This document shows positions 1,353-40,094 of a stretch of 64,000 nucleotides of DNA, piece by piece. Source of the stretch: an uncultured Chitinophaga sp. (GTDB lineage: Bacteria; Bacteroidota; Bacteroidia; NS11-12g; UBA9320); NCBI GenBank assembly GCA_964617955.1, contig CAZTXB010000014.1:8430-72429 (forward strand), in the 5' to 3' direction. The notes under the pieces are model-generated. The model was given only the letters and a program-made list of their open reading frames with translations. It was not told the DNA's origin and ran no database searches. Each line of letters opens with the position of its first letter. Positions within the stretch are counted from its first letter, which is position 1. The position numbers and the translations under genes are program-made.

Positions 1353-1392
1353 TTACCAAAACAAAACCCGTTCAGCAAAGCTAAACGGGTTT
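1353..1392 (-). terminator. Rho-independent terminator candidate for the 2188-aa gene.
   Basis: An inverted repeat aacccgtt (1365-1372) / aacgggtt (1384-1391) with an 11-nt loop lies about 22 nt past the stop at 1414. On the minus strand it is followed by a T-rich run (ttttgttttgg). Confidence 0.5.
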
Positions 1393-1413
1393 TAGTTTTA
1401 TAAAAGGCTATAA

Positions 1414-4400
1414 CTATTTACCTCTGAGAAGGGTAACGGTACCACTCATAGGCTTTTTACGTCCATCGTTAAGTGGTTTACCTTTAACTTGGTAATTCAT
1501 GATATAGAAATAAGTTCCTTCTGGACAGTCGGCGCCATCATTCTTAACTTTTCCGTTCCATCCAAACTTGGAATCCTGACTTTCGAAAACCACCTCGCCC
1601 CAACGGTTATAGATGGTGATATCGAATTTATCAAGACCCTGTGCTTTTACTCTAAACAAATCATTTAGGCCATCCTTTGGTTCAGGCGTAAATACGTTGT
1701 ATGGAATGATTACCGCTACGAATGTTGAACAAACTTCCTGATAAGCCGTATCGGTACATCCTATGGCATTTGTAGCAATAAGCGTTACCAAATGACAACC
1801 TGTATCAGGCCACTGGTAGCATGGATCCTTTAAAATAGAGCTTCCATTCGGGTTATCCTCAAAAATCCACTCATACTTCACAGCTCCTTGAGATGCATTC
1901 ACGAAACAGAAGAGTGGTGATTTGGTATCATCCACAGTAAAGTCAGCCTTCACATCCAATACAACCACATCGTGACTCACCGTGTCAAGGCACTTATGGA
2001 ACTCGGGCGTGTCGTAATCAGGTATCATAGTCACCTTGTACTTACCAACATTTGTAAACCTGTAGCTGGCAAAAGTATCAGTGGTATTTACGGTATCTTC
2101 AGTTCCAAATAACCAGGTAAAACGTTTGTACAGGGTATCGGAAACTGAGCTGAAGTTTAGCAAAGTATTTGGACAAATGGTGTCGTTTGGCAAGATATCA
2201 AACTCGGCAGGAGCTACAGCTTTCACTCTGATAATCCTTCGAACCGGAATATCAAAATCAGCCGTCGTGTCAGGATAAATAACAGAGCAACGCTTGTTTG
2301 GATCTCCCTGAATATTGGCAAACTGAGTTAAATAAACATAGTATGTACCAGGATTTTTATATCTATGACCCACCGACTTCTTAGTAGTATCTGAGTAAGT
2401 ACTTAAATCACCGAAGTCCCAAATCCATTTTGGATTCCAGCCGGTAGGGTTTGGTGGATCCCAACTGTTATTTATAAATGAAACTGAATCATTCACGCAT
2501 ACAACGGTATCACCAAGATGATCAAAATGTGGACGAGGACCTTCAATATGAATTTTTACACTGGTGCTGTCTTCACAACCCAGTTTGGTTCTCACTTTTA
2601 GCGTGATGGTAAAGTCTCCATTTTGAGTGTAATCGTGGGATGGGTTTTGCAATTTACTCTTGCGTTTTCCATCTCCAAAATCCCATGTGTACTCCACAAT
2701 ATTGTCGCAGGGTTTTCCTTTTGCCAACAGGCATGGGTCAATCACCTTACTGGTGTCGAGGAATGAGAAAATGTTCTTACATGGATTTGTAGAGGCATTG
2801 ATAACCTTTATACCTGCCTTAACACCGGTAACATATATTTTTTGTCTGGTGGTATCCACGCATCCCATACTGTCTTTCATGGCTATACGCACTGTATAAA
2901 TTCCGGGATCATCATAGTGCCATTTGAAAGGAGGCACTCCTATTCCTGTTGTTCCAAATAGGTTATTAGGATAGGCTATACTGTCGCAATAAGGTGGTAA
3001 TTTACTTTTCTTAATACTGTCGTTATGCTCATTCCAATCGATTTTCATCCTCTCGCGGTTGTTTACAAATCGGGTTGGCGTATTCCAGTAACGGGTTCCA
3101 TTGAGCCAATTGAAAGGATCCTGGTAAGCAAAATAACGGATGCTATCGCGCAACACAATATCGGTATTGCCATGACAAATGATAGAATCGGAGAACGTCC
3201 AGTTTGAGAAGAATCCAACAACCACCTCGGTATTCCGTGGTTGGAAACATCCTTCAGTATTTCTCAACTGGAAAGTTGGGAAATATCGGCTGGCCTTAGT
3301 ATAAGCATGTCGGTAAACACCTGGAGTCGCAGCTAAGTTGGTGAGCTTATTTGCTCTTAAGCTATCCCCATAGGTAGGTACTTTGCTCTTAATCATACTG
3401 TCATAAAGAATAAAACTCTTGCTTCTGATCACGCTGTCCCTATACACTTTTATTTTGCTCTTGGTCTTAGTGTAGACATACGTTTTCACATTGCTCTTGA
3501 TGGCGCTGTCGCCATAAGGTGGCAATTTACTTTTCACAGTAATTATGCTGTCATCCGAAACTTTTCTCCACCACCAGAACCATGAGAATTTGCTTCCCAA
3601 AATAAGCGGCTTAGGATTAAACAATTTCTTTTTAACGGTGCTGTCTTTGTAAATGAAACTTACAATGGTGCTGTCAAGGAAAGTAAAACTTTTAGCCTTT
3701 ATCACGCTGTCTCTATAAACACGCACCCTACTCTTTGTGATTAAACTGTCACGGAAGAATGCTTTTCTACTTTTTATGGTACTATCACCAAATGGACACA
3801 CCTTACTGGCAGTTTTAACTCTGTGCTTTAGAGTATCCCATCCTGCCTGACTGCTATCTCTCCAATGAAGTTTCTGAGATATAATCACTGAGTCCTTTTT
3901 GGTATAGTCGGTATAACGGTACCAGGTGTCACCAACTTTAAATCCAACGGTGGCAACGCTATCTTTCAATGTATTGACTTTGCTCTTCATGTATACCAGC
4001 ATGCTGTCGCGGAAAGGAGCAATCTTACTTTTCACCACACTGTCGGCAAATGGAGCTAATTTACTTTTTAGGCGCACTAGGGTAGTCCGGCTGGTCAATG
4101 CGTCCCGATAAGGCGCTACACCATAACTAATGAGACTACCTAAACCAGTGGTATCTATACATCCTTTACCTGAACCATTTCCAAAATAGAGTGGGATTTC
4201 AGTCGATGGAATTTCCGACATAACCAGATTAAGTGCCTTAAAGGCATTTTCAAGGGCCACTCCTGCCCTCGTGACATCTGCGGCTATTGTCCATTTTCGA
4301 ATAATGCCTGTTACGATGGTATCAAGTGTTTTGTAATTAAAACCGTCATACTCCAAGCGTATCACGTAACTATAGAGCCACTTGTCACCTTTTTTCCAGT

Positions 4401-7400
4401 CTTTAATGACCCGGTCATTCCGGTTATTATTAGGTCCGGGATAAGGTTTGTAGTAATAAGTTCTTTCTTCATAATACGAGCCCTGGTCATCGTTCCAATT
4501 CCATACCAGCTGGGTTACGCTGTCCATTTTCGGATCAACAAGTTGGAAGGTAATGGTATCGCCAACGCAAACCGTTTTTTGGGTTCTTTCAGGAACGATC
4601 ACTGTAAATCTTGAATCGAGATAAAGATACCTGAAGGCATTGTGGTACCAAGTTGTATCTATACATTCGATGGTATCAAGTGGCGCGGCATAATCCATCC
4701 AACGGCCGTTTCCAATAATAACACCTACTGTTACCCAACCCGGATTACGGTTCTGAATTTGTCCGGCCGTGTAAGGCATCACAAATCGTGTAGGGTAAGC
4801 ACCTGCAGGCTGATAGCCTGGGTGCCATGGCTGGGCTCCTGGTAAAGGTGGTGACAAGAAACCACCATGAGTTACCCAATTGTTGGTTCCTCCGGCCGAG
4901 TCGAAATTAAATTTGAGCAACCTTTGGGTACAACCCGGTTTGGTCTCCCCTACGTCAAAAATCATACCATATGGTGGACTTGGGGGTGCATAGCATTTAA
5001 TACCTTCCCACTTTAACCCTCTACCGTTTGGCGGAACCAGTGCTAATGAAATTTGTCCCTGGCTCTTGCAGCGAAGGGAATGCACTGTATCCTCATGGTA
5101 TAGGGAAACGGTATTGCATTGGGCAGTATTAAAATAAAAATTCTCGCGGTGGAAGTTGGAGTCAATATAAATACGACTTCTGGTTACAAAAGTGTCTCTT
5201 CCACCAATGATGGTATCCACACAAATGGTAGTAGGCTGCGCGTTGATGGTTCTGCCGGCGGTGATATAAAATTGAGACCTAGAGAAGGCTGTATCGGCGA
5301 TGATGCGATACTCACTAATGTTCAGAACATCATTTCCAGATTTAATAGGGTTGCTGATAGGTCTTTTGACCTTTTGTCCATTGACATAATAAATGATACT
5401 GTCAGCATCTCCGTATTTTTGGTAGAAGGTTTCAAGCGTATCTTTTTCAAGGAAGAAACGGGTTACCTTTCCAAGATCAGCATTAACCTTTTGCTTTGTT
5501 ATTTTTGAATTTTCACGGACTCCCCAATTTTCAACGGTGCTGGTATCTCCCACATAAGTTCCTCCACCCGGAATGGTTCCTACCTTGTATGGACGCAATG
5601 AGTAACCATGTAAGGGTTCATCGTGCATATGCCAGAGTTTAAGATAAACAACCGGTCTGCTGCTGGTTAAGGTGTAAGTACGCCACTGGCGCTCTGGCTC
5701 CAACTGCATCTGGTCCGTCATGTTTCTCAGAGTCACCATACCATTAGGTTGGTTGGTGTAAACACCTGTTCTGATGTTTTTCACAGTAATACTATCAGGC
5801 GTTTGTAAAAACCATTTTTCATCACTTAGGGTTGGAACATAGGAGCCCATCCCTGCAATGTAGGTCGGTACTTTTTTAATTCTGAAGGAGCCTGTAAATT
5901 TCTCCGGTGTACTCGGTTTAATGGTATCTTTTCCAAAAAATACCATGGTGGAATCCTGAGGCACAATCACCAAAGTATCGGCCGGAATCACAAAAGAATT
6001 GGCGGGATAGTAGCGAATCTTATAACAATATCTTCCTCCTTTACACAATACGGTCTTCTCAGCGGCGGTAGCGTAAAACTGACCATTGTTATAATTCTTG
6101 TACAATTGTTCCCAAGGGGTATACCAATGCACAGGCAAGCTATCTCTGCTAAAATTACAGTTAAGCCCTACGTTTTTATTTTTTCTTGTATCAGTGGTAC
6201 ACTTAGGAGCGTAGTTATCTCCAAAGGTCCACAATCTTAAAGCATGTTCCTTATGTCTTTGGCGGGCAGGAGGGAAAACCGATGGGATAGCAGTTTGATC
6301 ACCGGGCCATCTGAAGGCATATTCTTTTACCTTGCTAAAAATGATTGTATCCTTCCCTGAAATGATTGGATTAATAATTGCCTTCCTGACCTTCTTACCA
6401 TTGATATAATAAATGATACTGTCTTTTTCGTTGGCTGTTAAGCTCAATGTTTCAAGCGTATCCTTATCCAGGTATAAAATAGTTGTGATCCCATATTTAC
6501 CCTGATAGGTTCCGAAAGGTTGTATGGTGTCAAGTGTTAATGGCTTCTCCCAATAGCCCACCTTATTTCGGCTGGCTGAGGTAAAATAAGTAAACACCCT
6601 TGAACTGTCTTCAAACACAGGAACATCGTCCACATGATAAAAACTCGAGTTGTTTACAAAATGTACCGAGTCGCGGATTACGCATTGGTATTTTTCATCT
6701 TCCTTAACCCTGTTAAAGGGTATCTCAATCGTAGAAGTAGGTCCTATTTTTGTGATGGTATCAAATACCGTCACATTGCAAGGCCCGCTTCTGATATTTA
6801 CCGAAGCCATCCAGGGTCCTAACGGATAGTTATGTGCAGCTTTTATTAAAGTTCTGTTGTTGAAGTTTGCAGGACCTGCTGGCGGCCGTCCAAAATTCCA
6901 CAAGAAATTACTTGAGCTAATCGGCTGCAAGGTATTTCTGTCCACAGCTGTATATTCAACCAAAGGGGTGCTCGAGCAAGAAGAATCCGGGTCGGCTATG
7001 ATTTTAACATTCAAAATAGAGATGGTTGCAGCCGCCTTAAAAGTGAACGAATCGACACAACCATGAATGGTGGTAACTGTTAATTTCCCATTGAAAACAT
7101 AGGTGCCACTGGGCATCCCCGTGACATTATACGTATGTGTGTGAACCCCGTTACCGGTTGGTCCCATCCACCATTGTGTATTAATACCCAAGCTACCGCT
7201 TCCTGTGATAATGTTGTTAAATGACCCCGGGAATCCATAGTTCCAAACGAAAGATTTAATGGAAGATAAAGGCGTAAATGCAGGTGTTAAGTTTCTGATG
7301 GTAGCTACCGATTGAATACAAGCATTGGGTCCTGAGGCAGTGAAGTTTACCCCTATTTTAGGAAACACCCTAATGAAGGTGTCGTATTTGACCTTGGTTA

Positions 7401-7980
7401 TACAGCCATTTGAATCTTCCGACTCTATGGTTAAATCGAAATATCCTCCAGCCGGATCTATCACGCTATGGCAGATGGTATCGCCACCTTTTGGATTGGT
7501 GAGAACGTAAAGCGCGCCATCACTAAAAAGATATTTTGTTTTTAGAATTTTGCCGGGATTGGCAGCTTTAGTGCTGTCGATAAAGCAAAATTTATTTCCT
7601 AGGAAACATTGATTTTTATTGTGGAGTGGGCGGGTAAATACACGTGGACTTGCCTTAATCACTATATCGAAAGAGCCCGTACATTTTACGCCGGTTACGC
7701 TATTGGTAAAAGTGTAGGTAACGGTATAAGTACCTGCTTTGGAATAGGCATAAAAAGGATCGCGTTGCGTGGAAGTTCCTCCATTTCCAAAATCCCAGGC
7801 ATAGACATCCTTTCCAGGCGAATTGGCCACAAAAAATATGGGTGAGTTTTCGCAATTTGAACTTTTTGTTTTATCCCAGAATGGATTACAGGCTTGGCCC
7901 TGACTGAACTTTGAACCTGTAATTAAAAGCAGCAACATGCCGATTTTCAATAACGCTGAGATGGTTTTGTTTTTTCTCAT
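1414..7980 (-). CDS. Giant secreted cell-surface protein of 2188 aa. It has a signal peptide, PKD-like domains, an internal 13-aa tandem repeat array and a T9SS type-B (gliding motility-associated) C-terminal domain.
   Basis: The N-terminus MRKNKTISALLKIGMLLLLITGSKFSQGQA is a Sec signal. There are multiple W/FDFGDG...Y PKD-type motifs. The C-terminus reads YNVFTPEPKDGLNDLFRV...IYNRWGEVVFES...WNGK...GTYFY...GTVTLLRGK, which is the T9SS type-B CTD consensus. Confidence 0.9.
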   Translation of the reverse strand: MRKNKTISALLKIGMLLLLITGSKFSQGQACNPFWDKTKSSNCENSPIFFVANSPGKDVYAWDFGNGGTSTQRDPFYAYSKAGTYTVTYTFTNSVTGVKCTGSFDIVIKASPRVFTRPLHNKNQCFLGNKFCFIDSTKAANPGKILKTKYLFSDGALYVLTNPKGGDTICHSVIDPAGGYFDLTIESEDSNGCITKVKYDTFIRVFPKIGVNFTASGPNACIQSVATIRNLTPAFTPLSSIKSFVWNYGFPGSFNNIITGSGSLGINTQWWMGPTGNGVHTHTYNVTGMPSGTYVFNGKLTVTTIHGCVDSFTFKAAATISILNVKIIADPDSSCSSTPLVEYTAVDRNTLQPISSSNFLWNFGRPPAGPANFNNRTLIKAAHNYPLGPWMASVNIRSGPCNVTVFDTITKIGPTSTIEIPFNRVKEDEKYQCVIRDSVHFVNNSSFYHVDDVPVFEDSSRVFTYFTSASRNKVGYWEKPLTLDTIQPFGTYQGKYGITTILYLDKDTLETLSLTANEKDSIIYYINGKKVRKAIINPIISGKDTIIFSKVKEYAFRWPGDQTAIPSVFPPARQRHKEHALRLWTFGDNYAPKCTTDTRKNKNVGLNCNFSRDSLPVHWYTPWEQLYKNYNNGQFYATAAEKTVLCKGGRYCYKIRYYPANSFVIPADTLVIVPQDSTMVFFGKDTIKPSTPEKFTGSFRIKKVPTYIAGMGSYVPTLSDEKWFLQTPDSITVKNIRTGVYTNQPNGMVTLRNMTDQMQLEPERQWRTYTLTSSRPVVYLKLWHMHDEPLHGYSLRPYKVGTIPGGGTYVGDTSTVENWGVRENSKITKQKVNADLGKVTRFFLEKDTLETFYQKYGDADSIIYYVNGQKVKRPISNPIKSGNDVLNISEYRIIADTAFSRSQFYITAGRTINAQPTTICVDTIIGGRDTFVTRSRIYIDSNFHRENFYFNTAQCNTVSLYHEDTVHSLRCKSQGQISLALVPPNGRGLKWEGIKCYAPPSPPYGMIFDVGETKPGCTQRLLKFNFDSAGGTNNWVTHGGFLSPPLPGAQPWHPGYQPAGAYPTRFVMPYTAGQIQNRNPGWVTVGVIIGNGRWMDYAAPLDTIECIDTTWYHNAFRYLYLDSRFTVIVPERTQKTVCVGDTITFQLVDPKMDSVTQLVWNWNDDQGSYYEERTYYYKPYPGPNNNRNDRVIKDWKKGDKWLYSYVIRLEYDGFNYKTLDTIVTGIIRKWTIAADVTRAGVALENAFKALNLVMSEIPSTEIPLYFGNGSGKGCIDTTGLGSLISYGVAPYRDALTSRTTLVRLKSKLAPFADSVVKSKIAPFRDSMLVYMKSKVNTLKDSVATVGFKVGDTWYRYTDYTKKDSVIISQKLHWRDSSQAGWDTLKHRVKTASKVCPFGDSTIKSRKAFFRDSLITKSRVRVYRDSVIKAKSFTFLDSTIVSFIYKDSTVKKKLFNPKPLILGSKFSWFWWWRKVSDDSIITVKSKLPPYGDSAIKSNVKTYVYTKTKSKIKVYRDSVIRSKSFILYDSMIKSKVPTYGDSLRANKLTNLAATPGVYRHAYTKASRYFPTFQLRNTEGCFQPRNTEVVVGFFSNWTFSDSIICHGNTDIVLRDSIRYFAYQDPFNWLNGTRYWNTPTRFVNNRERMKIDWNEHNDSIKKSKLPPYCDSIAYPNNLFGTTGIGVPPFKWHYDDPGIYTVRIAMKDSMGCVDTTRQKIYVTGVKAGIKVINASTNPCKNIFSFLDTSKVIDPCLLAKGKPCDNIVEYTWDFGDGKRKSKLQNPSHDYTQNGDFTITLKVRTKLGCEDSTSVKIHIEGPRPHFDHLGDTVVCVNDSVSFINNSWDPPNPTGWNPKWIWDFGDLSTYSDTTKKSVGHRYKNPGTYYVYLTQFANIQGDPNKRCSVIYPDTTADFDIPVRRIIRVKAVAPAEFDILPNDTICPNTLLNFSSVSDTLYKRFTWLFGTEDTVNTTDTFASYRFTNVGKYKVTMIPDYDTPEFHKCLDTVSHDVVVLDVKADFTVDDTKSPLFCFVNASQGAVKYEWIFEDNPNGSSILKDPCYQWPDTGCHLVTLIATNAIGCTDTAYQEVCSTFVAVIIPYNVFTPEPKDGLNDLFRVKAQGLDKFDITIYNRWGEVVFESQDSKFGWNGKVKNDGADCPEGTYFYIMNYQVKGKPLNDGRKKPMSGTVTLLRGK
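3355..4075 (-). repeat. Coding tandem repeat array inside the 2188-aa protein. The unit is 39 nt (13 aa), there are about 18-20 copies, and each contains a DS dipeptide.
   Basis: The motifs gctgtc (DS on the minus strand) and ttgctctt (KSK) recur about every 39 nt. Peptide units include KSKLAPFADSVV, KSKIAPFRDSMLV, KSRVRVYRDSVIK, KSKLPPYGDSAIKS and KSKIKVYRDSVIRS. Confidence 0.7.
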
Positions 7981-8065
7981 AATTTGTATTTTAAATATGT
8001 CTTAAAGGGCTTCCTTTTAAAACAGCCCGCTATTTTACGATTTTTATTTTAATTATCAATAGGCC

Positions 8066-8905
8066 TTACAACAAAGTAAGTCCCCTCATGTCTCTTCTTT
8101 TAAACCCACTTTTCAGTTCATATCCGTATTTTACAAGGTAATACCCTCGTTCACAAGGCTGTCCTGTTGTCATATCTTTTCCGTCCCATCCTTTATTTTT
8201 ATCAAAGCTTTCAAAAACTTTTTTGCCGTTGCTTGTAAAGATTTGAAGGTAAAATGATTTTTCATTTTCTACCTCAATTTTGAAAAAATCATTCTGCCCA
8301 TCCCCATCCGGTGTAAACACATTAGGAGGTTCAACGAAGGCAATAGGTTGCGAATTTTCTTCCTTTTCTTCAACTTTCCCGGCAGGTTCTTCAATAATTT
8401 TGGTTTTTGGTGCAGGAATTGGCGTTGTTTCAGTCTCAACAACCGTGTTAGGATCATTGAATTTCGATTGAGGAATTCTTTCAGGTTCAGGCGTTTCGTC
8501 AACAATATACATTTCAACCATCGGAAGACTATCGTGCGATTGAGTGGCTTTTTGTATTAAAGATGGGTTGTTTGAGACGGTATTATCGGCTAGTTCAATT
8601 TCAAAAGTATCCTTGTCTGCCGCAACCGCAGTTACTGAATCGGGTTTTCTGTCGATGGGTGGCTTGGCTTCATTGCTTTGTAAGTACCTATAGCTTATAA
8701 ACCCTAGGCCGCCCAGAGCAAGCATGCCGGCTATCACTTTCGCAAATAAGAATTTAGATATGGCAATTTTTGCAGTTGACACAGCACCTGCACTTATGGA
8801 AGAACCCACTGATTCCCATACCCCTTCGGGTACTGGCATTTTTGTACCTTCAACAGCCTGCTTGAGCATCTGGTCGAAGGGGTGGTTGAGTTCCTGGTTT
8901 TCCAT
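8066..8905 (-). CDS. Single-pass membrane protein in the anti-sigma position downstream of an ECF sigma factor. It has a P/E/T-rich linker and ends in a T9SS type-B C-terminal domain.
   Basis: The 279-aa protein has a roughly 50-aa N-terminal cytoplasmic segment, one TM helix (FLFAKVIAGMLALGGLGFISY) and a low-complexity linker. Its C-terminus reads PNVFTPDGDGQNDFFKIEV...IFTSNGKKVFES...WDGKD...GYYLVKY, matching the CTDs of the giant proteins in this window. The start lies 3 nt after the sigma factor stop (8909/8905). Confidence 0.7.
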   Translation of the reverse strand: MENQELNHPFDQMLKQAVEGTKMPVPEGVWESVGSSISAGAVSTAKIAISKFLFAKVIAGMLALGGLGFISYRYLQSNEAKPPIDRKPDSVTAVAADKDTFEIELADNTVSNNPSLIQKATQSHDSLPMVEMYIVDETPEPERIPQSKFNDPNTVVETETTPIPAPKTKIIEEPAGKVEEKEENSQPIAFVEPPNVFTPDGDGQNDFFKIEVENEKSFYLQIFTSNGKKVFESFDKNKGWDGKDMTTGQPCERGYYLVKYGYELKSGFKRRDMRGLTLL

Positions 8906-8908
8906 TTT

Positions 8909-9448
8909 TTAAAAATTATCCTTTAGCATTCTTTGTAACATTTGCCTTCCCTTATGCAGTTGCGTTTTAGAAGTACTTTCCGAAATTCCAAGCTTTTCGG
9001 AAATTTCCTTATGACTGTATCCTTCAATGATAAAAAGATTGATGGCAGTGCGGTATCCAAGTGGTAATTTTTGAATCAGATCCATCAATTTTTTCGCATC
9101 ATGTCGGTCAAATTGAATGGTTTCAGAACTTAAATCGTGGACTTCTTCTACATCAACTGTGGTCGGCTGCCTAAGTTCTTTTCTGATATATTCCAACGAG
9201 TGGTTAATAAAAATTCGCTTCAGCCAGCCTTCAAATGATCCTTCAAATTTAAACTCTGACAATTTAGTAAAAGCTTTGATGAAGCCTTCCTGAAGCAAGT
9301 CTTTGGCCTGATCGGCATCTTTTGAATACCTGTAACAAATCGCATACATGGTAGGGGCAAATATGTCAAATAACGCTTTTTGTGACTTTGGATTCTGAGC
9401 AATGCATCCTTGTATCAGCAGTATATTCCTCTCTTCGGATTGCAGCAT
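8909..9448 (-). CDS. RNA polymerase sigma-70 factor, ECF subfamily.
   Basis: The 179-aa protein has a region-2-like segment (FDIFAPTMYAICYRYSKDADQAKDLLQEGFIKAF) and a region-4 HTH (GYSHKEISEKLGISESTSKTQLHKGRQMLQ). Confidence 0.9.
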   Translation of the reverse strand: MLQSEERNILLIQGCIAQNPKSQKALFDIFAPTMYAICYRYSKDADQAKDLLQEGFIKAFTKLSEFKFEGSFEGWLKRIFINHSLEYIRKELRQPTTVDVEEVHDLSSETIQFDRHDAKKLMDLIQKLPLGYRTAINLFIIEGYSHKEISEKLGISESTSKTQLHKGRQMLQRMLKDNF

Positions 9449-9523
9449 AGTTTCTCATTGAAGTTCTTTAAGTCACCCTGTAAGGATGAAATAATTATTG
9501 ACATGGTTGCCTAATGAATAAAA

Positions 9524-9997
9524 TTATTCGGATAATTTTTTTACCCCATAATTTTTAGAATAATATTCGGCCAGCATTTCGGCGTAATAACCTGTGCTTT
9601 CTACTGCTTCTATTACTTCAGCCTCTGTGAGTCCGGCAACAATTCGCTTGTACTTAATCGCCAAAACATTGTCTTGACGGTTTACAATGATGGAGGCCTG
9701 GTAAAGGTGAAAATTCATATGCAGCAATTCCTCATAAAATTGAAACAGTCTGGAGGCTTCGGGCAATTCGGTAATGGGTGCTATAACCTGAAAGGTATTA
9801 ACCGCATGCTCGGTTCCGGTGTAGTTCCAGTCGGAGTTTATGCTCGGCTTCCAAACATCTATAAATATACAAATGGCTCCTCTGAATAACTGCCATTGGC
9901 CTGTTTCTTCGCCTCTGGTTTCTTCCGGCGTCAATCCCATTTTTTGGATTGCAGATTCAATAATTTGGGTGTAATTGTCTGACATAAAAGAGCGCAA
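9524..9997 (-). CDS. YbjN-like (putative sensory-transduction/T3SS-chaperone-fold) domain protein.
   Basis: The 157-aa acidic cytoplasmic protein has a C-terminal pattern (LAIKYKRIVAGLTEAEVIEAVESTGYYAEMLAEYY) that resembles the YbjN family. I cannot confirm this without an HMM. Confidence 0.4.
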   Translation of the reverse strand: MRSFMSDNYTQIIESAIQKMGLTPEETRGEETGQWQLFRGAICIFIDVWKPSINSDWNYTGTEHAVNTFQVIAPITELPEASRLFQFYEELLHMNFHLYQASIIVNRQDNVLAIKYKRIVAGLTEAEVIEAVESTGYYAEMLAEYYSKNYGVKKLSE

Positions 9998-10074: not shown

Positions 10075-12087
10075 TCAGTGAAGAATAACCAATGGCGCTG
10101 TTTTCACCTGATGGTTATCAACTCTTTTTACCTGGTAGCTGCCGTTGGGAAGGAATGATAAATCTATGACTGACTTGTCTTTATGAATTTTTTCAGTGCT
10201 TACTAAAGTGCCAATTGCGTTGTAAATGTAAATCTCCGCCTCGGAAGTCAGATTAAAGTTCAAGGACTTTGAACAGGGATTTGGATAAAAATATAGGGCA
10301 CCGGTTCCTGTGTTATTTTTTCGAGAATATTGTGTTGCGTCTATGCAAGTAGCATCGCTAATAACCCTCTGTTTATTAATGCCTTCAACAACCCAGCGGT
10401 AGCATCCGCTTCCCTTGTCCAAGTCAAAGGTTTCAACAACGCTGTCTTTTTGAAATAGCGTGTTATTTGAAAAATTATGACCCATATCGGACCAATTGCT
10501 CTGCGCACTGTCAGCTTTTTGTAGGGTTATGCTCTTCACATTCCATTGTAGGTTTCCGGAGAAGACGGCAATAATTTTATTCTCGCTGAGTTCGAATCTT
10601 GGAACATAATTTATGCTGAATTCATCTTCACCAACACTCAAAGCCCTCAAAGCTACATGGTCGTAGCGGTACCTGGCCGGAATACCAGAATTGCGGTTAC
10701 TCAATGGAAATCCAATGGCTGGATAGGTTTTAAAACTTGGCCACCAATAAGGGTTTTGGATTAGGTAAAGGCTTGGTTCAATCAAAGGTGTTTTCGGATT
10801 TTCGGAAGGCAGATAATTCGACAGAAGATAATTGCCCTCTCCTGTCATATTATTTAATTTTCCTGTATTTTCATTCGCCAAAAAGTGAGTTCGGTTACCG
10901 GCGCCTGTATTCATAAATATACCCCAATTGTTTGTTCTGTTTCTAAAAAATAAGTTTCCGGGACCATTTTGACCATGCGAGTTGTCTACCACGATATTGC
11001 CCAACTCATTTCCTTCAAATAAGTTGGCAAAGGGATAATTGCCATGCAAAACTATTTCTCCTGCCGAATTGGAAGGAAAGAACCCTTCCTTCCAAAATGG
11101 ATTCAGGGAATAATTGCCGGAAATAACATTGGTATTAGCCCCAGCCTGCAACAAAATGCTGTGACGCAGGTTCTCAAATATGCAGTTTTCTATAAGGCAG
11201 TGGCTGCTGCTAAAGCTCAGTTCAACGCCGTAGGCTTTTCCTCCTCCTCCGTAATCGAAGGCATGATGTATATAGGAGTCGGCCACTTTGCAGTGAAAGG
11301 ATTTGTTGATGCTCACATGCGACATGTTGGATTTAAAACTTTCCACTCCCACGACTGAACAGTGGGCTGCATAGTAAAAATTAAAATTATGGGTTTGGCC
11401 TGGCGTTGCGTCTAACCTTTGCAGGGAAAAGTTTTTGAAATGCACATTGAATATTGGACGGATATGCCTGATGCGCGCATTTTCATAAAGGCTGTAATTA
11501 AGCGCCAACTCTGTAGTAAAATAAGCCTTTTTATCAGAGCTGCTTTCACATTTTAGTATTTGCCCAATGCTGTTCATCGCCCAATCGCTGGTTGCTAATC
11601 CCTTGCCATTAATCAACAATTCGTAGTACTCATTTTTAAGTAGGACAGAATCACTGAATACCTCTTTCGAGTGGAGTTGGTGTCCGCCAAGAATTGGGAA
11701 AAAACTTTCTGATTGAGGCGCCGAAATTTCGAAGAGATGTCCCTTGCCTCTTAAATCAAACAGGAATTTTGTTCTAACAGCTCCTTCACCCTGAATGCAT
11801 ATATTGCTTTTAAGATAAATGGTGTTTTCAAAAAAATAGGTGCCTTCAGGAAAATAAAAAATATTTACAATCTCGTCAGAAGCTTCGTTTATCAATTTTT
11901 GAAGCTGAACACTGTTGTCGAAAGCCCCATTTCCAAGAAGTCCCATGTCGAGAACATTGACTTTTCTCTCATGTATAGAAAACGCTTGATTTCCTGAAAT
12001 ATTCCAGTCAAAACGCAGACTATCAGGCACTTGACTAAATGCGCTTAGGGCACAAAATGCAAAAATAAATGCATAAATTGTCTTCAA
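10075..12087 (-). CDS. Secreted right-handed parallel beta-helix (pectin-lyase-fold) protein with a T9SS type-A (Por) C-terminal sorting domain.
   Basis: The signal peptide is MKTIYAFIFAFCALSAFSQ. Gly/Asn-rich beta-helix repeats are present (GGGGKAYGVELSFSSSHCLIENCIFENL, NTNVISGNYS). The C-terminus YFYPNPCSKSLNF...IYNAIGTLV...LPNGSYQV fits the type-A CTD. Confidence 0.8.
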   Translation of the reverse strand: MKTIYAFIFAFCALSAFSQVPDSLRFDWNISGNQAFSIHERKVNVLDMGLLGNGAFDNSVQLQKLINEASDEIVNIFYFPEGTYFFENTIYLKSNICIQGEGAVRTKFLFDLRGKGHLFEISAPQSESFFPILGGHQLHSKEVFSDSVLLKNEYYELLINGKGLATSDWAMNSIGQILKCESSSDKKAYFTTELALNYSLYENARIRHIRPIFNVHFKNFSLQRLDATPGQTHNFNFYYAAHCSVVGVESFKSNMSHVSINKSFHCKVADSYIHHAFDYGGGGKAYGVELSFSSSHCLIENCIFENLRHSILLQAGANTNVISGNYSLNPFWKEGFFPSNSAGEIVLHGNYPFANLFEGNELGNIVVDNSHGQNGPGNLFFRNRTNNWGIFMNTGAGNRTHFLANENTGKLNNMTGEGNYLLSNYLPSENPKTPLIEPSLYLIQNPYWWPSFKTYPAIGFPLSNRNSGIPARYRYDHVALRALSVGEDEFSINYVPRFELSENKIIAVFSGNLQWNVKSITLQKADSAQSNWSDMGHNFSNNTLFQKDSVVETFDLDKGSGCYRWVVEGINKQRVISDATCIDATQYSRKNNTGTGALYFYPNPCSKSLNFNLTSEAEIYIYNAIGTLVSTEKIHKDKSVIDLSFLPNGSYQVKRVDNHQVKTAPLVILH

Positions 12088-32554: not shown

Positions 32555-32616
32555 TGAAAAAGTCAATCTAAATATTACTTTTGAAATTCAATATTATTTA
32601 TAACTCAAAAAAAATC

Positions 32617-33348
32617 ATGAAAAAAATCTTTACATTAGCGTTGACTTTGGTTTCAGTTGCCACATTTGCCCAACGTTCGGCAGATATTAGCGTGACCATG
32701 AATAGCCCTACCACCGGAACGAACATCGTTTCTGGAAAATCTTTCACTCTTAACTACACGGGCACCAATATGGGACCGGACAAATTGGCCATTGGCGACA
32801 CCGTTGTTTATGGATTGGTCATTAACAACACTTTTATCAATGGAACTATTTTTTTCAGAGTGCTTACGGCTGATATCTTAAAAGATGGAGTGGTTCAGTC
32901 CTTTAATCAAACGGTAACGTTAAACATTCCCAATGAGTTAAATAATGCCAATTTTTGCGCTTACGTGGGTGCACAAAACCGATCATTCGGTTCTCCTAAA
33001 GTATCAGATCCGGCTACTGCCAATAATTTAGGCTGCTCTGTAGTAAATTTAAAAACCAGTAGCATAAAAAGTTTGGGCGAAGGATTGGCAACAGCCACCC
33101 ACATCAATGCTACTCCAAATCCCGCCAATGACGTGGTAAACATAAGTTATGAATTGGTTAACCCTGAAACGGTAAGCGTAGCGCTATACGACATGAATGG
33201 CCGTCAGGTAGTTGAAACCATTACCAACAAACAAAGTGCTGGCGAAAACACTGTTCAGATGAACACTTCTGAATTGAATTCAGGTCTTTATTTTTATGAA
33301 GTGAAAATTGGTGTTAACACAAAGCGTTACAAATTGATGATTAATTAA
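32617..33348 (+). CDS. Small secreted protein with a T9SS type-A C-terminal sorting domain.
   Basis: The signal peptide is MKKIFTLALTLVSVATFAQ. The C-terminus ATPNPANDVVNISYEL...VALYDMNGRQVVE...LNSGLYFYEV fits the type-A CTD. The ORF track begins 36 nt earlier, at 32581. Confidence 0.8.
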   Translation: MKKIFTLALTLVSVATFAQRSADISVTMNSPTTGTNIVSGKSFTLNYTGTNMGPDKLAIGDTVVYGLVINNTFINGTIFFRVLTADILKDGVVQSFNQTVTLNIPNELNNANFCAYVGAQNRSFGSPKVSDPATANNLGCSVVNLKTSSIKSLGEGLATATHINATPNPANDVVNISYELVNPETVSVALYDMNGRQVVETITNKQSAGENTVQMNTSELNSGLYFYEVKIGVNTKRYKLMIN

Positions 33349-35989: not shown

Positions 35990-36194
35990 GGGGCTTAAAT
36001 ACATCAGTTATTTTGTTTCTTTAGAGAAATATAATACCCCAAAGACAGAATGGATTTTTAAGGTAATGTGGTCAAAAATAGTTGGTAGATTTTAGACTAA
36101 TTAGGTTTAAAATAGCCGCATCAATCTGAAGAGGAAGTAAGCTCTGGTGGAGACCAACTTGCGAGCAATAGGATTGATGCATTAAAGGTAATAG

Positions 36195-36225
36195 GCAGTT
36201 CTTTTTATGAGCTGCCTTTTTTTAT
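36195..36225 (+). terminator. Rho-independent terminator candidate.
   Basis: The stem ggcagttc / gagctgcc is 8 bp with one G-U pair and a 7-nt loop (tttttat). It is followed by a 7-T run. It lies about 200 nt past the carboxyltransferase stop and immediately 3' of an inverted-repeat element. Confidence 0.5.
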
Positions 36226-36318
36226 ATTACCTGTATGCCTGTATCGCTAAAAAAAACTCATTTGTTATTGGACAAATAGACGTACCATTGCCTTTATTTG
36301 CAATGGACAAGATATTAA

Positions 36319-36759
36319 CCAGCAGACCCTAATATAGTATTTAGTGGAATACTAAACTCGAATAGTCAAATAGGTAAAATATTAATCAACTCAAGCAAAC
36401 ATTTTCAATTTTATAGTTGCGATTTTCTTAAAGTAGAAATAATAAAACACAGGGAAAAGCTCCTCCAACTGACCAAACTAAACGAGAATGAATTAAATGA
36501 GTTGGAAACATTGGTAACATCCAATATCACGTTTATTAATGAAGGTCTTATTCCAAAAAGAGAGATTGATGAATCACTTGAAATGTTAAAGGATATTGAT
36601 ATCAAGGATGCCCCTTTCGTGGCATTGACAAAATATCTTAATGGAACTCTTTGGACAGGGGACAAAGTTCTGATCAATGGATTAAAGGCAAACAAATTTC
36701 TGAAAACAATCACAACTTCTGACCTTTTTCATAGACTTGACGATTTAGAGAGAGAATAG
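36319..36759 (+). pseudogene. Possible PIN-domain (VapC-like) gene remnant.
   Basis: The C-terminal part (DIKDAPFVALTKYLNGTLWTGDKVLINGLKA) matches the PIN C-terminal hA..A....lLTxD motif. The annotated ORF uses a TTG start at 36502. The frame stays open upstream to 36319 without a recognisable PIN N-terminus or ATG. Confidence 0.3.
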
Positions 36760-36912
36760 GAAAACATTTGATAAAAACTGAATTCTCTACCGTCTATTAT
36801 GAAGCTTTGGATACTTTAAATATCGAATTAAATTTGTAGTGGCTTGAATCGTTGGTTGTTGGAGGTAGGTGCCCCTCAAACAAAACAGACGGGCTTATAA
36901 AAAATCACAACC

Positions 36913-37878
36913 ATGAAAATATTAAAAGCATTTAAATTAATCCCGCTTTTCGGAATTGTCGCCATGTCAAATTTGGCCTCAGGCACAACTTGGGATGAAC
37001 CATGGCAAGAAAAAATCATTAAGGAGGCTGATTATTTTGTGCTGGCAAAAATTAAATCGACCAATCATAAAAGTGTCACTCTTTCAAATATTACTACATT
37101 TGGAGGCGAAGAGCTAAAAGGAAATATTAAAATAACAAATTTTTATGATACCCATGTTCAAAGCTGGTCATCGGGTAGCCATGGTCCAGAGTTTAACTTT
37201 AAAAACATTAAGACATGTTACTTTTTTATAAAGAAAAATTCTGATGGAGAATACTGTATAGCCACGCCAACCTCAGGATTTGCAATGGTTGAGGATGGGA
37301 AAGTTTATGCCACGTATCGACACAGTTACCATCAAGCCATTGTCCCGTTTGATATTTACGAAAAATCTATGACGGCCATTTTTAACCACTATCATCAAAA
37401 GTCTTATGACGTAAAAGCGATTAGAGACTATATTGATATTTGTCTGTCACAAAATCCTACTGGTCTTAAAGAAGAGGAGATGACCACATTTTTTGCGCAA
37501 CATGTGGCCTTGGAGTGCGTTTATCATTTAAGACTGGATGGCTATTTTGAAAAAGTGCTTCCATTTCTTAAGGACACTTTGAATTTTCATAATCAAATTT
37601 CCGGAGCTAGAGCCTTAGCAAGCAATAATACTTTGGCATGCAAGCAAGAGCTTTTAAAAGTTATTGCCGATACAACAGCAAGCCGATTTGTTCAGGTGAT
37701 TTGTATTTGGACCCTGAGCGAATTTAAGCCAGTGGAATTGAAAAGTGAATTGACCACCTTATTGACTTTAGTTTCAGCTAAAAGCACAGGTTTTGGAGGC
37801 AATATTATGGACCCGCGGGTAGGGACTCACTTTCCTTCTCCTAGAGGGGCTTTGGAGAAACTAATAGAAGAATTGTGA
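36913..37878 (+). CDS. Hypothetical secreted protein.
   Basis: The 321-aa protein has an N-terminal signal-like segment (LIPLFGIVAMSNLASG). I recognise no family. It lies in a low-GC region. Confidence 0.5.
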   Translation: MKILKAFKLIPLFGIVAMSNLASGTTWDEPWQEKIIKEADYFVLAKIKSTNHKSVTLSNITTFGGEELKGNIKITNFYDTHVQSWSSGSHGPEFNFKNIKTCYFFIKKNSDGEYCIATPTSGFAMVEDGKVYATYRHSYHQAIVPFDIYEKSMTAIFNHYHQKSYDVKAIRDYIDICLSQNPTGLKEEEMTTFFAQHVALECVYHLRLDGYFEKVLPFLKDTLNFHNQISGARALASNNTLACKQELLKVIADTTASRFVQVICIWTLSEFKPVELKSELTTLLTLVSAKSTGFGGNIMDPRVGTHFPSPRGALEKLIEEL

Positions 37879-38052
37879 ACCTATTGGAGCCTAAAACCGT
37901 GCGCTAAAGATAATCCTTTGTTTTGGTTAACAATTTCAAGAGGCCCAGGGTTAGAGCACCTAAACCTTGAATTGTCAAATTTAATTTACTTAAGCATTTA
38001 ACACGAGTATTAATTGAAAAATGAATTTTATAAGCAAACAAAAACATTTTAG

Positions 38053-38559
38053 ATGAACTTCCCGCAGAATATATGGGCGCTTTTTTATGTTCTATTTTTT
38101 ATTGGAGTCCTTTTAATCTCTATGGGACTTTTACTACGCTGGGTTAAATTCAAACACGACTATGTTTCATTTTATTTAGGCTACTTTTTTTTAGTTTATT
38201 CAGTTTTTATTTTTATAAACCAATTGAATACAAGGAAAAAAGAAATGAAAGAAAGAGAAGGGGTGTATTGTGCATTAAGACAAAATGAAGTTTACGAACT
38301 TTGTAAGGACTTAAATGTTGATAGCTTACAATTAACATTAGAGAAAAGTGGCAAGTGCTATTTTAATTTTAAGACATGCTTCATCAATAATTCAATTGGC
38401 ACTTGGACTTGGAACGAAGATATGGTTGGCGCATGGATAAGTATAGACATAAATTTAAAAGATCAGGCTCATCTAACTTTTGACGAAAAGGATACCCTAA
38501 GACTTTACAACCAAAATAATATCTACATAACATTTGCAAAGAAAAAGATGCAAAAATGA
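38053..38559 (+). CDS. Hypothetical membrane protein.
   Basis: The 168-aa protein has two N-terminal TM helices. Its stop overlaps the start of the next ORF (38556), suggesting a small operon. Confidence 0.45.
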   Translation: MNFPQNIWALFYVLFFIGVLLISMGLLLRWVKFKHDYVSFYLGYFFLVYSVFIFINQLNTRKKEMKEREGVYCALRQNEVYELCKDLNVDSLQLTLEKSGKCYFNFKTCFINNSIGTWTWNEDMVGAWISIDINLKDQAHLTFDEKDTLRLYNQNNIYITFAKKKMQK

Positions 38560-39011
38560 AATGCTCCAAAAGTTATCAATCTTGTATAAATCAGAGAATG
38601 AAAAGAATCCTATTAATATTATCAATTCTAGTCTTCAATCCACCAAGTCATAGCCAATCTATTTTTTTTGACAACCTCAACAACTCCATTTGGACTTCAA
38701 CAGCAGAAATTTCAGATTCCATCTTAAAAACCTCAAAACAAATTCCCATATCAAAACTTATTTATTCAAAGGACTCCATTGATAAAGATGTGACTATATG
38801 GCTATTCAAAGACGGCTTTTTATAAATAGTCTATTATAATCATCAGTCAAAAACTGAAAACTTGGTAGGTACTTATGAATATTTAATCGAATTAAATAAG
38901 GGTACGTTACAACTGATTGTTGAGAATGTCACCTTAAAATATAAAGTTGGTATTGTTTCTTCTGGCTATCATGCTGTACTTTTACGGACAAAAGAGAGAA
39001 GAAAAAAATGA
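38556..39011 (+). pseudogene. Small secreted protein gene interrupted by an in-frame TAA at 38823-38825.
   Basis: The 89-aa ORF has a signal-like N-terminus. After the TAA the same frame stays open for 61 more codons (IVYYNHQSKTENLVGTYEYLIELNKGTLQLIVENV...) until a TGA at 39009-39011. Confidence 0.4.
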
Positions 39012-39217
39012 AAACTTGATTCAAATACAGGGAATAAAATTAATAGCCAGTCTAGCAAGGAATAAAAATCCCTATCAAATTTACTATTTCCTTTTCTGAA
39101 AGTTTGAAAACCAGATCACAGATCCAAAACTAAGTCAAATCTGTAAGCCTGAATTTTAGTTCATAATTTTACCAATCAATTTTTTTTGATAATTTTTGTA
39201 AATTTGAATAAGTAAAC

Positions 39218-39457
39218 ATGAGAACATTAAATATATCCATATCCGACATTGAGTTTAACAAATATGGATTAACAAAAGAAAAATTAACGTTTACAGATCT
39301 CATCGAACTGGTTATCAGAGAATTGACCCGTCAAAACTTGAACAAAAGCGTAGAACTTGCCGAAAAGTACGGACTTTCTAAAATGACTATGGATGAAATC
39401 TCAGACGAAGTAAAATATGTCAGAGAAGATGCAAAGGGTCGTGATATATACCAATGA
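39218..39457 (+). CDS. Small hypothetical protein.
   Basis: The 79-aa protein is charged and helical. I recognise no family. Confidence 0.35.
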   Translation: MRTLNISISDIEFNKYGLTKEKLTFTDLIELVIRELTRQNLNKSVELAEKYGLSKMTMDEISDEVKYVREDAKGRDIYQ

Positions 39458-39692
39458 TATAGTTTCATCCTTTATTTAATGAATTAAAGGTAAACAATAT
39501 AAACCAATTAAAACCTGATGGCTAACCGAGTTGAATGCGAAAATGCTTTTTTCTCTTAGCTTTAGCTCGCATCAGAATCCATCCTTTTCAAATTCCATTC
39601 ACCCCTAAGTTCATGCCTGCAACCAAACCCGAAACAACAAACTCGAACCCCCAAACCAAAAACCCCCAAACCCTCAAACCTCAAAACCCTCC

Positions 39693-40094
39693 TCAATACT
39701 CCACCTCCTGGCAATCACATTTCCTTATCACCCTCCGCCTTCCGTTCTTATTTATTTTTAACCAGGGTTTATTTTGGTCGTAGTATATAATCCATTTTAC
39801 GACTCCATGCTTATATTTTATTTTCTTTTGAATGCTTTGGTCAGGGTGGTACCATGTCCATATTTTATGCCTCTTTAAATTTTTAAAATAACCTTTCACC
39901 TCAACCTTAGCCTCAACCTTAGCCTCAACCTTATCCTCAACCTTATCCTCAACCTTATCCTCAACCTTAGCCTTAAAAATATAGGTACCCGTTTTTAAAG
40001 AATCGTAAACTATGGATTGAGCTTTGACAACTTGTAATCCCATCAATAGGATGGAAACTAACCAAATCCTACCTGTATTTTTTATATTAATCAA
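39693..40094 (-). CDS. Small secreted repeat protein (MORN/YwqK-like motif) with an internal (KVED/A)n tract.
   Basis: The signal peptide is [27 protein letters not shown]. The C-terminal half is W/Y/G-rich ([12 protein letters not shown]...[23 protein letters not shown]). The [24 protein letters not shown] tract is encoded by a 12-bp tandem repeat. Confidence 0.5.
39901..39972. repeat. Perfect or near-perfect 12-bp tandem repeat, six copies, in frame within the CDS.
   Basis: The units are tcaaccttagcc, tcaaccttagcc, tcaaccttatcc, tcaaccttatcc, tcaaccttatcc and tcaaccttagcc. Confidence 0.9.

Follow-up and report, generated by a model that had tools for sequence, protein, structure and literature searches.

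The closest described relative of the locus reported here is the Dma/Das architecture, which was described in Bacteroides in 2024 (PMC10927553) and in which ECF21 sigma factors are encoded beside Dma proteins (PMC10927553; PMC13088901). Dma1 spans both membranes via a disordered tether, its N-terminal 40 amino acids (1-40) pull down the sigma factor Das1, and C-terminal fragments of the protein occur in a growth-phase-dependent manner (PMC10927553). The Dma1-Das1 regulon in Bacteroides includes NigD1, which is required for the OMV phenotype. In the Fec system (FecA-FecR-FecI), the periplasmic end of the anti-sigma factor FecR contacts an energised outer-membrane machine, the TonB-dependent transporter, while in the FlgM/sigma-28 system the fate of the anti-sigma factor is tied to the secretion apparatus, with FlgM being soluble and fully exported. 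Neither the Fec nor the FlgM system shows a sequence or domain relationship to the anti-sigma factor described below.

Known T9SS cargo proteins carry cleavable signal peptides and depart from the inner membrane, and a cognate PorP/SprF-like gene near type-B CTD substrates is frequent, but not universal. Type-B CTD proteins are reported to associate with PorP-like proteins, by which they become anchored at the cell surface (PMC9143113). In Porphyromonas gingivalis, the CTD protein PorA relays T9SS/surface information to an ECF sigma pathway, as we also propose for the present locus; PorA, however, is a surface protein whose action runs through the kinase PorY and the regulator PorX, involving neither an anti-sigma factor nor a membrane tether to the sigma factor, and SigP of this organism controls T9SS component genes (PMC7712824, PMC12152298).

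In the window, i.e. the whole 64-kb stretch of DNA that was analysed, three minus-strand ORFs were found at 9448..8909 (179 aa), 8905..8066 (279 aa) and 7980..1414 (2188 aa), exactly as given in the initial annotation, which had nevertheless overlooked a conserved promoter (9511..9484) and one further conserved gene, the fourth of the unit (9985..9527, 153 aa). As part of an overall explanation that we regard as probable, these genes form a four-gene envelope-signalling module of Bacteroidota consisting of the 153-aa gene, an ECF sigma factor, a CTD-bearing anti-sigma factor and a giant protein. The arrangement is a conserved module rather than a one-off. Its features are as follows:

1362..1394, minus strand: terminator-like hairpin (15 pairs and a T run) 3' of the giant gene, likely the end of the operon
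1414..7980, minus strand: 2188-aa secreted giant protein (four PKD domains, type-B CTD), conserved as the final gene of the module
8007..8030, minus strand: small conserved hairpin, GCGGGCT...AGCCC followed by TTT, within the 85-nt spacer 5' of the giant gene
8069..8338, minus strand: T9SS type-B CTD (CHU_C/TIGR04131) of the anti-sigma factor, residues ~190-279 (PF13585, TIGR04131, AF2 beta-sandwich)
8339..8689, minus strand: disordered Glu/Pro/Thr/Ser/Lys-rich linker of ~117 aa (AF2: no secondary structure, pLDDT 50-60)
8690..8752, minus strand: single TM helix, ~residues 52-72 (AF2 helix 57-78; mean hydropathy 2.03 over 19 aa)
8792..8881, minus strand: N-terminal region of the anti-sigma factor, residues 9-38, two short helices with the motif FDxxhKxxhx7PxPxGVWExV, presumed sigma-binding element
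8909..9448, minus strand: ECF (group IV) sigma-70 factor, 179 aa (Sigma70_r2, Sigma70_r4_2, TIGR02937)
9484..9511, minus strand: predicted ECF-type promoter GGCAACC-N16-CATCC, ~35 nt 5' of the sigma ATG
9527..9985, minus strand: cytoplasmic protein of 153 aa, T3SS-chaperone/YbjN-like in its fold, first gene of the module

The TAA stop codon of the sigma gene (8911-8909) is followed by AAA and then by the ATG of the 279-aa gene at 8905, leaving a gap of 3 nt without overlap and both genes in one frame. Analysis of relatives revealed sigma-to-anti-sigma gaps of -20 to +9 nt with a frequent -4 ATGA overlap; coupled translation of the two proteins, which had been suggested for this locus, therefore fits, although the window itself shows no overlap. 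An in-frame arrangement of sigma and anti-sigma genes was also considered as a sign of a Dma3-like fusion, and this reading was dropped because out-of-frame gaps occur in relatives. For the 153-aa gene, the mechanical ORF call (9524..9997) started at a TTG, and relatives begin at the ATG at 9985. Its product has the T3SS class-I chaperone/YbjN fold (alpha-beta3-alpha-beta2-alpha); more speculatively, it might serve in partner switching, similar to ExsC, or be a chaperone acting before export.

The 179-aa protein matched Sigma70_r2 (PF04542) with 51 bits, Sigma70_r4_2 (PF08281) with 59 bits and the sigma70-ECF model TIGR02937 with 91.5 bits against a cutoff of 42.9. With its length of ~180 aa it comprises regions sigma-2 and sigma-4 alone, as is characteristic of the ECF group (group IV), and its closest solved structures in the PDB are the ECF factors SigE, SigW and SigH. 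Upstream of the sigma gene, the consensus GGCAACC-N16-CWTCY was present in 29/29 CTD-type loci having at least 100 nt of upstream sequence, always with a spacer of 16 nt. The motif occurred singly per locus and at a constant position, the exception being one off-position chance match in locus L005, and was found once in the 64-kb window (0.21 expected by chance). From this pattern, we predict that GGCAACC-N16-CATCC is probably the promoter of an autoregulated operon.

AlphaFold2 modelling of the 279-aa protein, based on a 70-sequence alignment, yielded two helices (9-19 and 29-38), a TM helix at 57-78, an unstructured stretch from 79 to ~190 and a beta-sandwich at 190-279 with pLDDT values of 94-98. 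This bears out the originally proposed layout of a short N-terminus, a single TM helix and a disordered linker, the latter measuring ~117 aa compared to the earlier estimate of ~130 aa. The T9SS CTD claimed for the protein was recovered by HMM search as PF13585 CHU_C (residues 193-260, 52.3 bits vs 27, E 6e-14) and as TIGR04131 (36.2 bits), which exceeds its cutoff of 35 by a margin of just 1.2 bits. Similarly, the claim that the protein lacks a ZAS, FecR or RskA domain held, as neither Pfam nor NCBIfam returned a ZAS/RsrA, FecR or RskA match at E<=0.1. A profile search with the N-terminus against PDB sequences gave no relative. A cleavable Sec signal peptide is not apparent, as judged from the position of the hydrophobic segment, which begins at about residue 52 behind the conserved cytoplasmic-type motif.

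A first homologue search with the 279-aa protein returned just one 99%-identical copy, and an exhaustive search of cluster representatives was used instead, which identified 314 representatives at E<=1e-10. Among the top 150 cluster representatives (50% identity), 141 combined the N-terminal motif with a TM helix and a CTD, and the N-terminal motif was conserved throughout the family. Net charge alone favours an N-in topology, in 119/141 members; the K+R counts used for the positive-inside rule, 1.34 before the TM helix and 1.45 after it, point to neither orientation. The linker is unconserved in sequence and constrained in length, with a minimum of 116 aa in the 141 members and a range of 116-164 aa in the 89 short-type members. 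An ECF sigma gene lies directly 5' in 59/59 homologues with readable upstream DNA. A script counted 57/62, manual translation contributed two more loci (L057 and L028), and the remaining three of the 62 do not enter the total because their sequence is cut by the locus ends. The comparative check suggested by the initial annotation was thus carried out, and the combination of sigma factor, CTD anti-sigma factor and giant CTD cargo was encountered repeatedly in many Bacteroidota.

Database entries name the family members 'gliding motility-associated-like protein', 'gliding motility-associated C-terminal domain-containing protein' or 'hypothetical protein', for which reason a regulatory role would remain invisible in databases. 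Taken at face value, these names and the bona fide CTD would point to a small T9SS cargo of the ordinary kind whose N-terminal signal sequence is unusually long and whose sigma neighbourhood reflects conserved gene order without a regulatory protein-protein link. We consider this very improbable, since the hydrophobic segment starts only at about residue 52, behind a motif common to anti-sigma factors whose N-terminal 40 aa bind sigma, since a 'mature' protein would consist of the disordered linker and the CTD alone and thus contain no functional domain, and since the sigma adjacency is without exception in the 59 readable loci, with gaps confined to -20 to +9 nt. The protein can also be compared with T9SS type-B cargo, i.e. 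SprB-type adhesins with PorP/SprF-type partners (PMC9143113, PMC12618676). It shares with them a C-terminal TIGR04131/PF13585 domain and a genome containing other type-B cargo; in contrast, it has a predicted cytoplasmic N-terminus and a membrane anchor instead of a cleavable signal peptide, a disordered linker instead of a passenger domain, and no adjacent porP/sprF gene.

A second reading starts from the C-terminal fold. Foldseek comparison of the anti-sigma model with the PDB mainly returned Ig-like folds of a generic kind, among them the CTD of NucA from the T9SS translocon complex 8glk_D. The protein could accordingly be a conventional single-pass ECF anti-sigma factor whose CHU_C-like sandwich serves as a periplasmic sensor or binding domain (for a ligand, the giant protein or a periplasmic T9SS part) and is never handled by the T9SS and never located at the outer membrane. 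Sigma adjacency and the N-terminal motif support an anti-sigma function as such, the sandwich is of a generic Ig-like type, the N-terminus is not of the signal peptidase type, and the CTDs form an ancient clade of their own apart from the cargo CTDs, as could be expected of a specialised function other than secretion. We nevertheless judge this reading to be rather unlikely, as the domain scores above the curated thresholds of both type-B models and keeps the type-B motif PNVFTPxGDGxND...W.G...GxY, as the linker never falls below 116 aa despite its unconserved sequence, which fits a reach to the outer membrane as in Dma1, and as the sister family has an outer-membrane anchor in place of this domain.

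The 2188-aa giant protein carries four PKD domains and a CHU_C CTD (65 bits), and the remaining two large CHU_C proteins of the window were confirmed as real, in agreement with the three giant CTD proteins counted previously. Orthologues with 30-64% identity over the whole length are encoded directly 3' of CTD-type anti-sigma genes in other genomes. A CHU_C CTD was present in each of the 14 downstream ORFs that are complete, 13/14 being orthologues of 1607-2188 aa, while a further 22 downstream ORFs stay open up to the locus end. Gaps between the anti-sigma and giant genes amount to 1-4, 54 or ~85 nt, and the orthologous 1600-2200-aa CHU_C protein is almost always next. A Pfam scan of window ORFs of at least 120 aa and of the called genes of loci L004, L005, L007 and L008 gave no PorP/SprF match, in line with the earlier remark that no porP/sprF-like gene is adjacent in the window.

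In the clade of the window, the 85-nt spacer between the anti-sigma and giant genes holds the hairpin and a sigma-70-like element (TTGATA-N16-TAAAAT), so that transcription of the giant gene may start from a promoter of its own. The hairpin is conserved in 7 related loci and shows one compensatory change (GGGCT/AGCCC to GGACT/AGTCC in L005 and L014), which was identified by eye and is its sole support, its fold energy being not significant (z -0.43). Possibly, it represents an attenuator or an RNA-stability element.

A third alternative is a cargo-mimic relationship, in which the CTD of the anti-sigma factor (in long variants ~250 giant-like aa) would vie with the giant for one PorP-like anchor or T9SS receptor, and the sigma factor would report occupancy by that particular cargo in a feedback loop rather than serve as a general T9SS sensor. 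The giant is indeed an orthologous, module-specific partner, both proteins carry type-B CTDs, and the long anti-sigma variants (413-475 aa) align to giant residues ~1929-2188. In contrast, anti-sigma CTDs are no closer to the CTD of the cognate giant than to those of non-cognate giants, the cognate domain ranking anywhere from 1 to 13 of 13 at identities of ~30-41%. We found no cognate-specific similarity and no co-evolution between the anti-sigma CTD and that of the neighbouring giant, and the two sets form separate clades. Such a competition is thus quite unlikely in our assessment.

Comparison with Dma-type loci was based on Bacteroidales MAGs retrieved with a hand-built degenerate DNA pattern, which sampled the PxGVWEx[VI] subfamily alone. 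Ten out of ten tested CTD-less proteins bearing the N-terminal motif matched PF13568 OMP_b-brl_2. The N-termini of the CTD-type and OMP_b-brl_2 anti-sigma factors align in register, the comparison set being beta-barrel proteins of matching architecture from Bacteroidales MAGs, and the similarity at motif residues arises partly by construction because the beta-barrel set was retrieved with a motif-derived pattern. The sigma factor of the window shares 37-46% identity with those adjoining beta-barrel (Dma-type) anti-sigma factors, values that coincide in part with the lower end of the 38-53% found among more distant CTD-type sigma factors. In addition, several Dma-type sigma genes are preceded by similar GCAAC-N16-CATCT elements when compared by eye. 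The identity values and the resemblance of the promoter motif point indirectly to a possible assignment of the sigma factor to ECF21 (Das-type), a group confined to Bacteroidota. The hits were MAGs throughout, the CTD variant being encountered mostly in those of environmental samples, and the BAM-inserted barrel variant in the sampled Bacteroidales gut MAGs.

As in Dma/Das (ECF21), the 279-aa protein is thus encoded directly 3' of a Bacteroidota ECF sigma factor and combines a short N-terminal motif region, presumed by analogy to bind sigma, with one TM helix and a long disordered tether. The C-terminal 8-stranded OMP_b-brl_2 barrel of Dma proteins is absent (no OMP_b-brl match was obtained) and its place is taken by the PF13585 CHU_C domain, so that the protein is not a strict Dma member. 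The operon partners are also different, as they comprise a giant surface protein of the CHU_C type and a protein with a chaperone fold here. From the shared N-terminal motif, sigma type and promoter type, we infer that the 279-aa protein is likely a Dma-like anti-sigma factor in which the outer-membrane barrel has been replaced by a T9SS CTD. The sigma/anti-sigma pairing postulated by the initial annotation is very likely genuine, judging from the sigma adjacency and the N-terminal motif common to OMP_b-brl_2 anti-sigma factors. In contrast, its remark that it recognised no described system with this architecture requires correction, as Dma/Das (PMC10927553) precedes it and the C-terminal outer-membrane module alone differs; a Dma-like anti-sigma factor with a T9SS CTD was not found described in the literature.

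Taken as a whole, we consider it probable that the locus represents a Dma/Das (ECF21-type) chassis with the barrel replaced by a T9SS type-B CTD, embedded in a four-gene signalling module. In the corresponding working model, the N-terminal ~40 aa would hold the sigma factor at the inner membrane, by analogy to Dma1(1-40)-Das1, the linker would cross the periplasm, and the CTD would dock on the T9SS or on a PorP/SprF-type outer-membrane partner. The anti-sigma factor would be tethered to both membranes via the secretion system and not via BAM-inserted strands. Its destruction or disengagement, for which proteolysis is the probable route in view of what has been suggested for Dma1, would allow the sigma factor to activate its own promoter, leading to more sigma factor, anti-sigma factor and co-transcribed giant surface protein. 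With the anti-sigma factor docked by its CTD and sigma freed on disengagement, the signal would consist in the condition of the T9SS or of the site of outer-membrane anchoring, and either engagement or failed engagement could release the sigma factor. T9SS engagement or CTD cleavage as the release signal, as put forward in the initial annotation, would be a possible form of this. A wiring of transcription to T9SS activity is suggested by the arrangement and would be plausible.

More tentatively, the anti-sigma factor might itself be a T9SS client. The T9SS, driven by the proton motive force, would capture its CTD and might even pull on it, or else the CTD would rest on a PorP-like anchor, the N-terminus meanwhile keeping the sigma factor at the inner membrane, with sigma release gated by secretion competence or anchor occupancy. 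If true, this would amount to an FlgM-like logic operating through a trans-envelope tether, and would be the first case of a transcription checkpoint that forms a physical part of the T9SS, gating the synthesis of a ~2000-aa surface protein.

Apart from the PorXY-SigP pathway of P. gingivalis, little is known of how T9SS-bearing bacteria match the synthesis of giant surface proteins to secretion and anchoring capacity. The module is a compact candidate for such a function, with one sigma factor, one promoter, one conserved cargo and one anti-sigma factor, whose sole extracytoplasmic feature is a secretion tag. Judged from these sequence comparisons, the Dma concept appears to extend beyond the beta-barrel proteins for which it was described, with a portable inner-membrane part (sigma-binding motif, TM helix and tether) and an exchangeable outer-membrane module.

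HMM matches identified the 179-aa protein as a standard ECF sigma factor (Sigma70_r2, Sigma70_r4_2, and TIGR02937 at 91.5 bits), with SigE, SigW and SigH as its nearest solved relatives. Its stop codon TAA (8911-8909) is followed by AAA and then by the ATG of the putative anti-sigma gene at 8905, leaving a gap of 3 nt. The sole domain match of the encoded 279-aa protein was a T9SS type-B sorting domain, as PF13585 (CHU_C) scored 52.3 bits at residues 193-260 (cutoff 27, E 6e-14) and TIGR04131 gave a marginal 36.2 bits, barely above its cutoff of 35. The type-B CTD recognized in the initial annotation is thus borne out, the latter model doing so marginally, and the HMM search likewise returned no signal for ZAS, FecR or RskA domains, none of which had been recognized. 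An AlphaFold2 model of this protein, based on a 70-sequence family alignment, revealed short helices at 9-19 and 29-38, a TM helix at 57-78, about 110 unstructured residues and, at 190-279, a beta-sandwich predicted with confidence (pLDDT 94-98). Net charge alone favours an N-in topology; the K+R count does not decide. The linker sequence is unconserved, with a high content of E, K, S, T and P, while its length is constrained, with a minimum of 116 aa and a range of 116-164 aa in 89 short-type members. The 2188-aa protein carries four PKD domains and a CHU_C CTD. ORF positions, which were confirmed for all three minus-strand genes, domain matches and the structural model led to the conclusion that the original observation of an ECF sigma, a CTD-bearing neighbour and a giant CTD protein was correct in every particular.

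Features of the window (coordinates, strand, description)
1414-7980, minus, gene of the 2188-aa giant protein
8004-8060 (within), minus, sigma-70-like element TTGATA-N16-TAAAAT and a GGGCT/AGCCC hairpin with a T run behind it
8066-8905, minus, gene of the 279-aa putative anti-sigma
8909-9448, minus, ECF sigma gene
9511..9484, minus, GGCAACC-N16-C(A/T)TC(T/C) promoter, single match in the window, found in 29/29 CTD-type loci of sufficient length
9527-9985, minus, gene of a 153-aa protein with a T3SS-chaperone/YbjN-like fold
10075-12087, minus, 670-aa protein with a pectate-lyase fold (right-handed beta-helix) and a type-A T9SS CTD, immediately upstream of the module
32581-33348, plus, 255-aa protein with a type-A CTD, T9SS cargo
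43980-48470, plus, 1496-aa DUF7948/PKD/CHU_C protein, T9SS cargo
61247-63952, minus, PKD/CHU_C T9SS cargo protein, at least 901 aa long, cut by the window end

An exhaustive HMMER search with the 279-aa protein across 1.84 billion cluster representatives returned 314 proteins at E<=1e-10, and 141 of the top 150 representatives share the plan of N-terminal motif, TM helix, linker and CTD. Public records name them 'gliding motility-associated-like protein', 'gliding motility-associated C-terminal domain-containing protein' or 'hypothetical protein'. The same neighbourhood recurred around sigma homologues at 79%, 72% and 52-54% identity and was absent around the 50%-identical sigma of a Rapidithrix. 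A degenerate DNA pattern for D-x3-[KR]-x10-P-x-G-V-W-E-x-[VI], run over 185,579 species genomes, yielded 58 loci that carry the ascertainment bias of the pattern and derive, going by record title, nearly all from Bacteroidota MAGs; the CTD-type carriers found are all MAGs. After annotation with purpose-built HMMs, 57 of the 62 ORFs with the motif, a set that counts in the window and the loci retrieved earlier, showed an ECF sigma directly upstream at a gap of -20 to +9 nt; manual translation added two and the other three are cut by locus ends, so that adjacency holds in 59/59 ORFs wherever upstream sequence exists. The scenario in which homologues are never sigma-adjacent therefore fails decisively, and pairs of sigma and CTD-bearing anti-sigma do recur beside giant CTD cargo. 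Some MAG titles clash with their content: L039 holds a CTD-type Bacteroidota module under a 'Burkholderiales' title, and L037 and L053, titled 'Chitinophaga pinensis', encode sigmas with 78-80% identity to the window sigma. All three are likely mis-binned or mislabelled.

The genome scan also revealed a second class of motif-bearing, CTD-less proteins of 370-470 aa, most of them encoded in gut and rumen MAGs of Bacteroidales. All ten tested contain PF13568 (OMP_b-brl_2), and at the N-terminus they can be aligned in register with the 279-aa protein. Their sigmas share 37-46% identity with the window sigma, overlapping the lower part of the CTD-class range, and by eye GCAAC-N16-CATCT precedes several of them. 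This architecture is that of the published Dma (dual membrane-spanning anti-sigma) proteins with ECF21 'Das' sigmas: Dma1, in which a long disordered tether links a TM helix to a beta-barrel in the outer membrane, shows growth-phase-dependent fragments, Dma1(1-40) pulls down Das1, and the barrel defines the family (PMC10927553, PMC13088901). Neither paper mentions a T9SS CTD, and a full-text search for anti-sigmas with a T9SS/type-B CTD found only the PorA-PorXY-SigP work, whose mechanism differs. The claim of an unprecedented architecture consequently needs tempering, as Dma/ECF21 anti-sigmas have the same plan but with a barrel. The most fitting description of the window protein is that of a Dma-like anti-sigma whose barrel is exchanged for a T9SS type-B CTD; lacking the defining barrel, it is not placed in the Dma family, yet it very probably works like Dma on the cytoplasmic side. 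The original interpretation is supported in part; the proposed sigma/anti-sigma pairing appears to hold up on the consistent adjacency and the shared Dma-type N-terminus. In the window, TAA-AAA alone (8909-8911 / 8903-8905) separates the two genes, which share a frame, and read-through would yield a Dma3-like fusion; since the relatives' genes are not in frame, this arrangement is probably a coincidence.

The module comprises four genes and a promoter. The motif GGCAACC-N16-C(A/T)TC(T/C) lies between the 153-aa-protein and sigma genes in every CTD-type locus with enough sequence, with an invariable 16-nt spacer, and usually ends some 32-35 nt ahead of the sigma start codon; each locus has a single copy there, L005 alone showing an additional chance match elsewhere. 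ECF promoters are typified by an 'AAC' -35 element, and we infer an autoregulated operon promoter. All 14 complete ORFs downstream of CTD-type proteins end in a CHU_C CTD and 13 measure 1607-2188 aa; in another 22 the reading frame is still open where the retrieved DNA stops. These giants are orthologous to the 2188-aa protein over its whole length (30-64% identity) and are not arbitrary cargo. The short, clade-dependent gaps between anti-sigma and giant genes (1-4, 54 or about 85 nt) argue for co-transcription. In the window's clade the 85-nt spacer is kept, and as it holds a weak hairpin and a sigma-70-like element, transcription of the giant gene may start there from a separate promoter; the hairpin shows one compensatory change (GGACT/AGTCC, in L005 and L014) and its predicted folding energy is not significant. 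The 670-aa pectate-lyase-fold gene is syntenic in L005 and L006, not in L004, L007 and L008.

Mimicry of the giant by ongoing gene conversion is argued against by the anti-sigma CTDs, which belong to an old, separate clade without cognate-specific resemblance to the neighbouring giant's CTD. Long variants of 413-475 aa (L007 8543-9784, L011 4511-5788, L018 2506-3846, L022 365-1672, L025 1432-2718 and others) have an extra domain before the CTD, and because their last ~250 aa align to giant residues about 1929-2188, they copy more than the sorting domain. Some members of about 465-490 aa (P0140, P0166, P0172, P0185, P0220, P0229; loci L038 3572-4984 and L039 448-1875) carry a tandem pair of N-terminal sigma-binding-type motifs before the TM helix.

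None of the three further T9SS cargo genes in the window is sigma-adjacent, and no PorP/SprF gene was found among the window ORFs scanned, extending the earlier remark that none is adjacent. The stretch 36000-40100 is low in GC (0.32-0.35 vs about 0.41 elsewhere), its ORFs 36913-37878, 38053-38559 and 39693-40094 are without Pfam match, and it may be acquired DNA.

Mechanistically, the N-terminal helices of the 279-aa protein would sequester the sigma and the disordered tether would span the periplasm; at the textbook value of ~0.35 nm per residue of extended chain, a fully extended 116-aa tether could reach about 40 nm. The CTD would dock on the T9SS or a PorP/SprF-type anchor, and PMC9143113 links surface anchorage of type-B CTD proteins to association with PorP-like proteins. 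Loss or change of docking would lead to anti-sigma degradation, whereupon the sigma would drive the operon, giant surface protein included; judged from sequence, the T9SS/docking signal may be of either sign. Overall, this common module, so far neither annotated nor described, is a variant of the known Dma/ECF21 kind and gives experiments direct access to the question of how transcription might couple to type IX secretion.
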